IMG/VR virus record: IMGVR_UViG_2698536454_000017
Reading direction: 5' to 3' (one strand)
DNA length: 38,733 nt
Origin: a virus
Taxonomy: Duplodnaviria > Heunggongvirae > Uroviricota > Caudoviricetes
A program made the translations under genes and the position numbers. This document shows positions 1,121 through 4,200 of this stretch, in pieces; positions within the stretch are counted from its first letter, which is position 1, and each line of letters opens with the position of its first letter. The notes under the pieces are model-generated. The model saw nothing but the letters and a program-made list of their open reading frames with translations, was not told the origin of the DNA and searched no databases.

Positions 1121-1501
1121 TTAAGCAATTCCTCTCTCGATGGCATTGGCTTTACGCGTTGGCGAATAATCATTTCTGCCGGAAGAATGCCGGGATTGTA
1201 TGCAAGACCTCTCATGATTTACTCTCCACGAACTGGTCAATAGCCATGCTAGTGACACACCTAAAGTCTCGATATGCTGCTGAATATCCTGTAGCGTCTG
1301 CGCCTGAGATAACAGGATTTCACGGTTGCATAACTCTTTAACCAGATGCTCAAACTTGCTGTAATAACCGATACGGCTTAGTGTTTCTTTCCCTGCATTC
1401 TCGCCTTCTTTGATAATTCCTCTTTCGCTAAGAATCAGATCGTGTTTTGTTCCGGTAATAACGTATTTTCCGAGGTCGATGTTTAGCTTCATTGTTTTCA
1501 T
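1121..1501 (-). CDS. hypothetical phage protein (126 aa)
   Basis: ORF 1121..1651 trimmed to ATG 1501..1499 ([11 protein letters not shown]...) with GAGGAA SD 6 nt upstream; upstream gene stops at 1512. Confidence 0.45.
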
Positions 1502-1511
1502 TGTTAATTCC

Positions 1512-1805
1512 TCAGTCATTACTGATAGCGCCATAGCGTGAGCGGTAATTACGCAGGCGCGGGTCGATTTCAGGGAAGTGGGTATATGTGGCTTTGCGGA
1601 ATGGTCGGATTGATGTCTGGTAAATTCGCTCTCGTTCTTCTTTCTCTGCAAGCCATATGCAGTGGCGAAACTCCTTTTCCTCTTTCGTTTCCTGCGGTAG
1701 AGACATTATTCGATCGTAGTTTTTTCTGAATTTATCCAGCACCTCCGATACGGAATTGCCGGAACAGCGGCGCGGGTCATCCGCACCATACAGAGGCGCT
1801 GGCAT
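1512..1805 (-). CDS. hypothetical phage protein (97 aa); position and size compatible with an Abc2-like anti-RecBCD protein but not verified
   Basis: ATG at 1805..1803 with AAGGA SD; tightly packed in early-left operon downstream of erf. Confidence 0.45.
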   Translation of the reverse strand: MPAPLYGADDPRRCSGNSVSEVLDKFRKNYDRIMSLPQETKEEKEFRHCIWLAEKEERERIYQTSIRPFRKATYTHFPEIDPRLRNYRSRYGAISND

Positions 1806-1828
1806 AATGGAATCCTTATTTTGCTAAT

Positions 1829-2213
1829 CTAGAAGGGAATTGAATCGTCGTATTCAGGATGATTTTGATGATTGCTACTTTGCTGCTGTTGGCTGTTTCC
1901 TGAAGTTGCAAATCCAATCTTTGCATTCAGTAATTCAAGAGTGATTGATTGACCATTTTGCCCCTGATAAACATCAACCCTGATGTTTTCTCCGGTAATT
2001 TCCACAATGCCACCTTCAACAAGAACACTACGGTAGTAATCCGCTTGCGCTCCCGGCTTGGCAAATACAACGGCGCTGTAGTTTGTCCATTCTTTCTTTT
2101 TTTGTCTGGCGATCGTAATACTGAACGCCAGCACGGATGTTGAATCCGATATTTTCCCCGGCCTGAAACTCTCTTGCGGGCTTGTTTAGTCTTACAGTAA
2201 TCGAATGTGCCAT
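1829..2213 (-). pseudogene. SSB-like (lambda Ea10-type) single-strand DNA-binding protein gene split by a +1 frameshift in a 7-nt homopolymer
   Basis: N-terminal frame (ATG 2213..2211, MAHSITVRLNKPAREFQAGENIGF...) and C-terminal frame (ORF 1829..2134 ending ...PEYDDSIPF, an SSB-type acidic tip) both read through the T7 run at 2097-2103; removing one base joins them into one ORF of about 127 aa. Confidence 0.5.
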
Positions 2214-2818
2214 TAAGCAGCCGCTCCTTCTAATTCGTCTCGTCTGGTGTTGTAAACGTCCTGTGCTTTGTGCTGCTCCGGTGTGCCTTCGAGCATCTTC
2301 CACGCTTTGGCGAACGCCTGTTTAAGCTCTTCTACGGTGTTTTTCTGCAATGCTGCGTCAGTGAATGCTTTTAGAACCTGTTCAGGTGTAGGTGATGGTT
2401 TTGATTGCTTTGCTGCTGCGTTCTGCTGATGTTTATGCTCGTCGGTATCTGCATCTTTCGCATCATCAATGCCGAACAAACCATTGAGGCAATACTTGCG
2501 TGCATAAGAGCTTGTAGCTCCCGTAACTTGTGCAGAATCCATTCCTTTCTTGCTTTCTTCCTCTCGTGCAAGAGCGGTTGCCGTATGGCTGTTTTCGCCA
2601 TCGGTAATAGTTGCCGTGGCTTTCACGTAATACCGATCACCAATCAGCACAACTTCATCGCTGATTGATAAAAACAGGCCATTCAGTAACGGCTTAACGC
2701 CTTCAAGAATGTCTTCGCAGCTTCTGTATTTATATTTGCCGAATGAGTTGTACTGATTCTTTGGCGCGTTCAGATTCTCCTGAATAGCTGCCAGTCTTGC
2801 GTAAAATTCTTTGCTCAT
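2213..2818 (-). CDS. erf: Erf-family single-strand annealing recombinase
   Basis: N-terminus MSKEFYARLAAIQENLNAPKNQYNSFGKYKYRSCEDILEGVKPLL matches recalled P22 Erf; first ATG at 2818 (track start 2848 is TTG). Confidence 0.8.
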   Translation of the reverse strand: MSKEFYARLAAIQENLNAPKNQYNSFGKYKYRSCEDILEGVKPLLNGLFLSISDEVVLIGDRYYVKATATITDGENSHTATALAREEESKKGMDSAQVTGATSSYARKYCLNGLFGIDDAKDADTDEHKHQQNAAAKQSKPSPTPEQVLKAFTDAALQKNTVEELKQAFAKAWKMLEGTPEQHKAQDVYNTRRDELEGAAA

Positions 2819-2899: not shown

Positions 2900-4200
2900 G
2901 CATTCCTTCGCGGTCGCCATTATGGCGATACCAGAGAGCTTTCTGCGTGTACATGCGTCTCTGTAACTTGCTCTCCTTCACTGTGGTTGCAAGTGACATG
3001 CATATCTCCTTCGTTACCGATTAATTCTTTCATCTGACGAATGAATTCTTTGTCTGACCAGTTATCTTTGACATCCTCCACGCCCTAAAGGGCGTGGATT
3101 CCTCCTTCGAGACGGCGATGTCCCGCCGCGAGAATGTTCTTTGCCGCGTTTACGTCGCGGTCGTGGAGTTCACCACATTCCACGCAGATCCATTCTCTTA
3201 TTCCAAGGCCTACCCTACCCTTCGGACTACTGCAGCTAATAGCTCCGCAGCACGAGCAAGTCTGGGTGGTGTACGCTTCATCTACGACCTCAAAAACCAC
3301 ACTCCGCGCAATCGCTTTATACTGAATCTGATTTTTTAGCTGACACCAGCCGGCGTCGTAGATACTTTTTGCCAAATTTGTTTTTGATAACTTTTTACTG
3401 CTTACGTCGCCTACAAAAATAGCGGCGTATTTATTAACCAGCGCCGTAGAAAACTTATGGTGTGCATCTTTACGGCGATTTTTGATTTTTGCGTGGATAG
3501 CTCTAACACGTTTTTTATTATGGGCACGTTGAGCAATTTTTAATTTGCCTTCTAATTCACGATACCAACGTTTAGCAGGAAGTTTTTCACCATCCGAAGT
3601 GGTGGCAATGTCTTTCAGACCAAGATCGATACCCACGTCGGCAGTGCCTTTAGTTGGTTCGCATTCGTATTCAACTGCAACATTGAAATACCAGCGACCG
3701 CGCGCATCTTCTGCAAAGTTACCAGCACGGAATTTAAAGCCATTTAATCCATAGCTATCCCACACTTTGAAATAGTGCCCGGCAAACTTGATGCAGCCGT
3801 TTACCCATTTCACTTGAGCACCTTTGAACGGAACCCAACCAAGACTACGCCCAGCACCGCCACTTTTACGCCAGCGCAGCTTACTGCGTTTAAACTGTTT
3901 ACGCGCTTTAGCGTGATGTTTTGAGATTTCCTGACAAGTAGCTGCTTGTATGTGGTATCCGCGCTCCTTTTGAATACCAGCAATGCGTTTATCTACGTCA
4001 AATTCAGTTAACCAAACTCTTTGTTTTGGTCCGTATTCGCTGACAGTGCTGTATTCAGTCGCAGTCATTTCATTGATAAAGTTAAAAACTTGGTTCACTT
4101 CAAAGGCCATCTGACGCAACAAGGCGGCGTGGCGGTCTTTGACGCGTACCTGCAATGTTTTAGTCTGAATAGCCATTTACTTGCTCCCCTTATTGGTAAA
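2900..4200 (-). mobile_element. IS200/IS605-family insertion element carrying tnpB only (IS1341-like); ends approximate
   Basis: Intact tnpB with no Y1 HUH transposase nearby; perfect hairpin at tnpB stop; located in intergenic position upstream of erf; exact left and right ends not determinable without comparison. Confidence 0.5.
3085..4176 (-). CDS. tnpB: TnpB (IS605 OrfB-family RuvC-like RNA-guided endonuclease), 363 aa
   Basis: Motifs GIDLGLKDIATTSDGEKL (RuvC-I), TTQTCSCCG...CVECG zinc finger, HDRDVNAAKNIL (RuvC-III); GGGGAG SD 7 nt before ATG 4176. Confidence 0.85.
   Translation of the reverse strand: MAIQTKTLQVRVKDRHAALLRQMAFEVNQVFNFINEMTATEYSTVSEYGPKQRVWLTEFDVDKRIAGIQKERGYHIQAATCQEISKHHAKARKQFKRSKLRWRKSGGAGRSLGWVPFKGAQVKWVNGCIKFAGHYFKVWDSYGLNGFKFRAGNFAEDARGRWYFNVAVEYECEPTKGTADVGIDLGLKDIATTSDGEKLPAKRWYRELEGKLKIAQRAHNKKRVRAIHAKIKNRRKDAHHKFSTALVNKYAAIFVGDVSSKKLSKTNLAKSIYDAGWCQLKNQIQYKAIARSVVFEVVDEAYTTQTCSCCGAISCSSPKGRVGLGIREWICVECGELHDRDVNAAKNILAAGHRRLEGGIHAL

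Follow-up and report, generated by a model that had tools for sequence, protein, structure and literature searches.

Probable inactivation of a predicted phage SSB gene by a recurrent single-base insertion in the erf-abc2 recombination module of a P22-like prophage

HK97 gp40 was listed as 'SSB-1b', a single-strand DNA binding protein (SSB) so classed from its predicted structure, in a 2025 survey of lambdoid recombination modules, which found no SSB gene in 177 of the 246 Enterobacteriales lambdoid phages with such modules (PMC12315714). The function of the recombination-module SSBs discussed there was predicted and not studied experimentally (PMC12315714). In phage HK620, the SSB HkaK belongs to a different family (DUF669, not homologous to bacterial SSB) and needs its C-terminal hexapeptide NDYPPF to stimulate the annealing protein Sak4, while E. 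coli SSB ends in DDDIPF (PMC5928155). Frameshifts in short homopolymers have precedents of their own, among them the G7 run of the herpesvirus thymidine kinase gene, a 'savior indel' case with leaky correction (PMC5009743).

We analysed a 38 733-nucleotide stretch of tailed-phage DNA (IMG/VR virus record IMGVR_UViG_2698536454_000017; hereafter the window), which carries a gene of the HK97 gp40/HK633 gp036/WP_000951325.1 family in the same erf-abc2 slot and with the same TAATG coupling. The ...YDDSIPF tail present in most family members is read in the 3' frame of the window. Unlike the family, however, the window has a run of seven adenines (A7) instead of six (A6), and its frame is broken after residue 39. 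The features of the locus are as follows.

2213-2818, minus strand: erf, encoding an Erf-family single-strand annealing protein of 201 aa (Pfam PF04404 ERF, E = 2.5e-44)
2028-2213, minus strand: 5' fragment of the SSB-like gene, 61 codons (from sequence reading and translation)
2097-2103, minus strand: A7 homopolymer (T7 on the plus strand), one base more than the intact A6 (from alignment)
1829-2096, minus strand: 3' part of the SSB-like gene in the +1 frame, E41 to F127 plus stop (from translation, homologs and model)
1512-1805, minus strand: abc2, encoding anti-RecBCD protein 2 (Pfam PF11043, E = 6e-64)

At the TAATG junction, the erf stop codon TAA (2215-2213) overlaps the ATG of the SSB-like gene (2213-2211); in relatives, erf is annotated with 606 nt and the same end junction. 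Frame 0 from this ATG comprises 61 codons up to the stop TAG at 2030-2028, and its translation reads MAHSITVRLNKPAREFQAGENIGFNIRAGVQYYDRQTKK, then ERMDKLQRRCICQAGSASGLLP. The product of the 5' fragment therefore consists of 39 native residues (MAHS...RQTKK) followed by 22 out-of-frame residues. In the +1 frame, an open stretch extends from 2134 as far as the stop at 1831-1829; it reads ...KKKEWTNYSAVVFAKPGAQADYYRSVLVEGG...PEYDDSIPF and contains most of the OB fold, a disordered Q/N-rich linker and the acidic tip YDDSIPF. In-silico removal of one A from the A7 run fuses both frames into a 127-aa protein, referred to below as the repaired protein. As it stands, the window copy is not one continuous open reading frame (ORF) of family length, and the 3' part is untranslated unless the frame is corrected. 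The gene order erf, SSB-like gene, abc2 is constant wherever the retrieved sequence covers these genes (that of one locus, L137, stops short of abc2). The remainder of the window codes for a P22-like virion module, which comprises terminase, scaffold, coat, a portal of 738 aa and a tailspike of 759 aa. Between positions 1 and 12213, the window is 100% identical to the E. coli draft contig CYCS01000008.1 (GCA_001283365.1; contig positions 3-12215). It therefore begins where a contig ends, and the prophage may lack its left arm, on the integrase side, in this record.

Surveys of relatives indicate that the intact state of the gene is A6. Over its full length (100%), the repaired protein shares 97-98% identity with an intact 127-aa protein that is common among lambdoid and P22-like phages (E = 1e-76), and 98% with a cluster of homologs represented by P0001; at the nucleotide level, the identity of the gene to the HK97 gp40/HK633 gp036 family is about 96-98%. 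These joint matches of the two halves show that the ORFs are not paired by chance and bear out the preliminary description, which had read the two overlapping minus-strand frames as a single SSB-like gene. It had also placed the break at the T7 run 2097-2103, and the sole local alignment gap indeed sits inside this run. A megablast search with window positions 1700-2400 matched 206 phage and 1068 E. coli records, the full-length matches being nearly all one base shorter than the window query. When the window is aligned with HK633, HK97, phage HF4s and a prophage of E. coli, the run is A5 in HF4s, A6 in the other three and A7 in the window. The records of HK633, HK97 and the E. coli prophages show a single CDS of 384-390 nt here, flanked by erf and abc2. 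Of the 126 relatives obtained in the first searches by sequence, 125 carry A6 and one, a phage, carries A5; all 120 loci retrieved from IMG/VR with a variable-gap pattern have A6. This comparison of run length in related phages, proposed in the preliminary description, leaves the window with one extra base. The exact intact product is encoded on at least 1000 contigs and falls in a cluster of 1653 member sequences. More than 1600 cluster members and every diverse homolog examined have a continuous single ORF of about 125-134 aa or longer; homologs thus read through the site, and the idea that they might naturally end here, which the preliminary description had named as a way to be wrong, is not upheld.

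The product of the intact gene is predicted to be an SSB-type OB-fold protein. First, the repaired protein matches PHROG 44, 'single strand DNA binding protein', with E = 1.8e-28, although a Pfam search returned no family at E <= 1, SSB (PF00436) included, and the best sequence match in the PDB (SSB 7d8j) is weak at E = 0.04. At E <= 1e-3 there are 320 homologs, from E. coli, Salmonella, Citrobacter, Klebsiella, Cronobacter, Serratia, Rahnella and other enterobacteria. Second, an AlphaFold2 model was built with 31 homologs for the intact homolog P0001 rather than for the broken copy of the window; it has a pLDDT of 84.9 and shows a beta-barrel and one helix, with a disordered segment at residues 107-120 (pLDDT < 50). 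Foldseek gave 47 PDB matches to this model at E <= 1e-3, every one of them PriB or an SSB of bacteria or mitochondria, with TM-scores of 0.37-0.56, 8-19% identity and E-values of 3e-5 to 1e-3. Lastly, most of the 31 aligned homologs end in a C-terminal tip of the form DD[S/A/D]IPF or DDxPPF. The PHROG 44 match, the predicted fold resembling solved SSBs and the acidic ...DDSIPF tip agree with the SSB-like identity first proposed from the letters alone.

Compared with E. coli SSB, the predicted OB fold matches solved SSB/PriB structures, and a disordered linker and an acidic tip ending in IPF are common to both proteins. E. coli SSB has about 178 aa, whereas the repaired protein is much shorter (127 aa) and has no Pfam SSB match. 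The HK620 SSB gene occupies the corresponding slot of its module, beside the gene for an annealing protein and upstream of abc2, but its product is of a different family and is partnered with Sak4 rather than Erf (PMC5928155). Its NDYPPF peptide offers a functional analogy for the DDSIPF tip with Erf here, by which the tip probably recruits the annealing protein, provided that the analogy extends from Sak4 to Erf.

To judge from its distribution in sequence records, A7 is most likely a real, inherited mutation. The alternative, that the true prophage carries A6 and that the extra base is a homopolymer miscall in a draft assembly, seems to us unlikely. In its favour, homopolymers are classic error sites, and A7 is missing from every high-quality collection scanned: the exact A7 pattern is absent from IMG/VR, species-representative genomes and JGI metagenomes, and a 71-nt run-centred query found no exact A7 among 578 complete-genome E. 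coli and 46 phage records. The corresponding A5 pattern is absent from IMG/VR, and the A5 version of the 71-nt query matches exactly in 2 complete E. coli genomes. Moreover, A6 is present in L052, the nearest relative, a prophage so similar that 11.7 kb of it differ from the window by 4 mismatches and 4 indels. The scanned public DNA collections do not contain the A7 allele; it was exact protein look-ups that revealed it elsewhere. The 61-aa product has been deposited under CTU99882.1 with the name 'bacteriophage HK97 gp40 [Escherichia coli]', and the 101-aa downstream ORF of the A7 allele is likewise found in a large protein collection. These two exact products are encoded on 12 (61-aa) and 7 (101-aa) contigs, and all 16 fetched loci encoding them have A7 at the DNA level. 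The contigs come from different samples, prophage contexts (next to dsdA, sbcB or torS) and immunity regions, and some of them were seen in 3 to 7 samples each. In Salmonella, too, there is an allele with A7 in its DNA; its downstream ORF of 101 aa is encoded on 24 contigs.

Such a spread over many contigs and samples argues against a miscall, and so does the sequence surrounding the run. We compared 600 nt of erf and 260 nt of the SSB-like gene across the A7 loci, which fall into at least 10 sequence backgrounds. Mismatches to the nearest A6 locus and to the nearest other A7 background were as follows.

L137: 0 to the nearest A6, 17 to the nearest other A7 background
L131: 1 to the nearest A6, 17 to the nearest other A7 background
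L134: 5 to the nearest A6, 33 to the nearest other A7 background
L138: 5 to the nearest A6, 22 to the nearest other A7 background
Window group: 1 to the nearest A6, 10 to the nearest other A7 background

Several A7 loci are far closer to A6 than to other A7 loci, which indicates that the insertion arose repeatedly. A single-origin A7 lineage spread by recombination was rejected, with A6 loci lying 0-5 mismatches away and other A7 backgrounds 10-33.

Two further observations weigh against an error in the window itself. L140, a contig assembled separately from run ERR137829 (possibly the window's own read set), matches the window at 100% identity over 4342 nt, a stretch that covers both A7 and a second nearby frameshift described below. 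Furthermore, alignment with four relatives over 23.5 of the 38.7 kb revealed no other uncompensated homopolymer indel in the aligned conserved genes, so that the assembly does not look generally error-prone. Besides the run, the isolated single-base indels in these 23.5 kb apparently spare the conserved genes, and the remaining indels form pairs that compensate each other in diverged stretches; a generally error-ridden assembly was rejected on these grounds. Of the three options offered in the preliminary description, namely an assembly or sequencing error, an inactivating mutation and slippage-prone expression, the second is thus favoured by the recurrence of A7, and the first is disfavoured; against programmed slippage speaks the lack of conservation of the run in distant homologs.

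L052 has private single-A insertions relative to the window, at 1152 (in 1 of 128 aligned loci) and 10506 (in 1 of 29); both seem to be errors in, or mutations private to, L052 rather than the window.

The purine-rich stretch ACAAAAAAGAAAGAA appears from the alleles on record to be an indel hot spot, a term that here denotes recurrence within the stretch. The other disrupted alleles are as follows.

A5: 32 contigs for one exact product in a 44-member cluster; phage HF4s; 2 complete genomes
A4: two 60-aa products
A10: one contig
GAAA duplication: product ARQKRKKEW...
+1 insertion in the adjacent AAA run: product ...QTKKKRMDKL...

Other kinds of disruption are common too: in further prophages, the SSB-like gene is broken elsewhere, by truncations, fusions and later frameshifts. 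The A5 copy of phage HF4s (MT833387.1, locus 488-883) is annotated as a 94-aa 'ssb protein' and a 36-aa 'putative phage protein'. The reference copy of HK97 gp40 (AF069529.1, locus ~860-875; alignment columns 385-405) has an extra C near its 3' end, GATTCCAATCCCATTCTGA. By reading, this C gives the end ...YDDSNPILI instead of ...YDDSIPF, and its removal restores DSIPF followed by the stop; the loss of the conserved tip in this copy is either a real mutation or an old sequencing error.

Among distant homologs, the site is encoded without the run, other lysine or glutamine codons taking its place: AAG AAG CAG AAG in Serratia, TCC AAG AAA AAG in Raoultella and TCG AAG CAG AAG in Rahnella. The protein nevertheless reads through, with K38, K40, E41 and W42 nearly invariant across homologs.

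A different possibility is that A7 still supplies useful SSB of full length, with RNA polymerase slipping (loss of one A) or ribosomes shifting by +1/-2 on AAA AAA G, or that the run is a phase-variable tract. We consider this distinctly improbable. Restoration of the frame in the A7 allele requires a +1 or -2 shift, or the loss of one A from the mRNA. Indels of both directions do recur at the tract, and AAAAAAA is depleted in E. coli genes, for which transcriptional slippage and high indel rates are possible reasons (PMC4066793). There are also precedents for a 'savior indel plus low-level compensatory frameshifting' (PMC5009743), and a modest hairpin (z = -2.2) begins 7 nt past the run. The AAA AAA G sequence would let tRNA-Lys re-pair in the +1 frame. 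On the other hand, the tract is short, efficient bacterial RNA-polymerase slippage being described at runs of 9 (PMC5009743). The shift favoured on A_AAA_AAA is -1, which by reading enters the wrong frame; -1 ribosomal frameshifting as a rescue was rejected, as it leads into an unrelated ...LLNY frame. Reading also revealed no Shine-Dalgarno-like element upstream of the run to act as a stimulator and no slow or stop codon after it, the next zero-frame codon being the common GAA. The hairpin is weak, and its z of -2.2 lies in the range often given by coding sequence, which makes it a doubtful stimulator.

The distribution of run lengths is equally at odds with a maintained site. Out-of-frame alleles are rare (no A7 and 2 A5 in about 578 complete-genome records), and every A7 allele is nearest to A6, leaving no A7 clade maintained by selection. 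In place of a conserved shift site with a two-frame architecture, we find single-frame A6 relatives, distant homologs without the run, which argues against programmed slippage, and scattered A7 alleles. Similarly, a phase-variable contingency locus is not what a tract of 6-7 nt with infrequent on/off variants suggests. The 'savior indel' cases do share with the window a single-base indel in a run of 6-7 bases, for which low-level correction is conceivable; unlike them, however, the A7 allele is rare and scattered among A6 relatives, and shows no sign of indel selection or functional leakiness. A conserved recoding site and a phase-variable tract are both hard to reconcile with these observations. 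Low-level frame correction on A7 is physically plausible, with no sign that it is used.

The intact A6 allele (for example that of L001) has its own potential shift site. Its codons ACA AAA AAG contain, in the zero frame, the dnaX-type -1 slippery heptamer A_AAA_AAG (window 2094-2105), with the hairpin at 2058-2089 starting 7 nt downstream, and a -1 shift on it would give the same 61-aa peptide as the A7 allele. The heptamer is probably incidental, as it is not conserved in distant homologs. That the tract is a functional switch or recoding site, with A6 making the 61-aa peptide by a -1 shift or A7 and A5 leaking useful SSB, appears very unlikely to us; if it were true, the phage or lysogen could tune SSB dosage.

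Least credible of all are two genuine separate small genes, a short N-terminal ORF and an overlapping C-terminal ORF, a reading that follows the separate annotation of the pieces by gene callers in several assemblies but is already refuted by the homolog alignment, in which the more than 1600 cluster members and all diverse homologs examined are single continuous ORFs through the site, and is opposed by the model, in which one OB fold extends across the junction (strands E21-34 and E39-51). We also rejected the idea that the 101-aa ORF is translated on its own from GTG 2134: by reading this codon has no visible ribosome-binding site, and the product would be the OB fold minus its first strands.

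Two other features of the early region were observed in the course of this analysis. One is a second lineage-specific frameshift at window 1121-1501 (minus strand), with an indel at ~1250-1251, 850 nt from A7, where the window has GCTAGTG and 32 of 34 relatives have GCTAAGTG; it does not lie in a long homopolymer. The 96-aa gene affected, downstream of abc2 and with a weak Pfam DUF5405 match in relatives, becomes in the window a 126-aa product with a 42-aa out-of-frame tail, and the change is common to the window, L135 and L140 only. The other is a 363-aa IS200/IS605-type OrfB/TnpB ORF at 3085-4176 (minus strand), close upstream of erf in the early-left operon, identified by Pfam OrfB_IS605 and Cas12f1-like_TNB matches in the identical locus L135. 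Of the A7 loci that were fetched, those of the window's lineage (L135, L140) are the only ones to show this ORF; L052 (IMG/VR) aligns continuously across the region and so probably carries it too. Both features are consistent with a decay of accessory early genes in a resident prophage.

Taking the evidence together, we regard the following as the most likely explanation and hold it with considerable confidence: a known gene, predicted to encode a phage SSB, has lost its function through an ordinary but real frameshift at a spot where indels recur. An inactivating mutation is favoured because homologs read through the site, the run is not conserved and A7 is found in many independent assemblies. 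We postulate that an insertion by replication slippage turned A6 (codons ACA AAA AAG) into A7. Translation would then leave the frame after Lys39 and stop 22 codons on, giving a 61-aa remnant that presumably amounts to a loss of function. The intact protein would coat single-stranded DNA, its tip recruiting Erf and/or host proteins in phage recombination. Several kinds of out-of-frame allele arise repeatedly and persist in lysogens, the probable reason being that the gene is dispensable in the prophage state and that host SSB suffices for many related phages; the 177 of 246 phages that have no SSB gene make such dispensability plausible.

The window copy is best described as a putative pseudogene of the HK97-gp40 ('SSB-1b') family in the recombination module of a lambdoid/P22-like prophage, its loss of function being deduced from the reading frames. 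For annotation, this means that the ORFs at 1829-2213 represent one frameshifted HK97-gp40-type pseudogene and not two hypothetical proteins. Current understanding of recoding and of phage recombination is unchanged by these results. The recurrent breakage of the gene in E. coli and Salmonella prophages suggests that the phage SSB is dispensable in lysogens, and the out-of-frame alleles provide natural knock-outs for asking whether SSB-1b assists Erf-mediated recombination.
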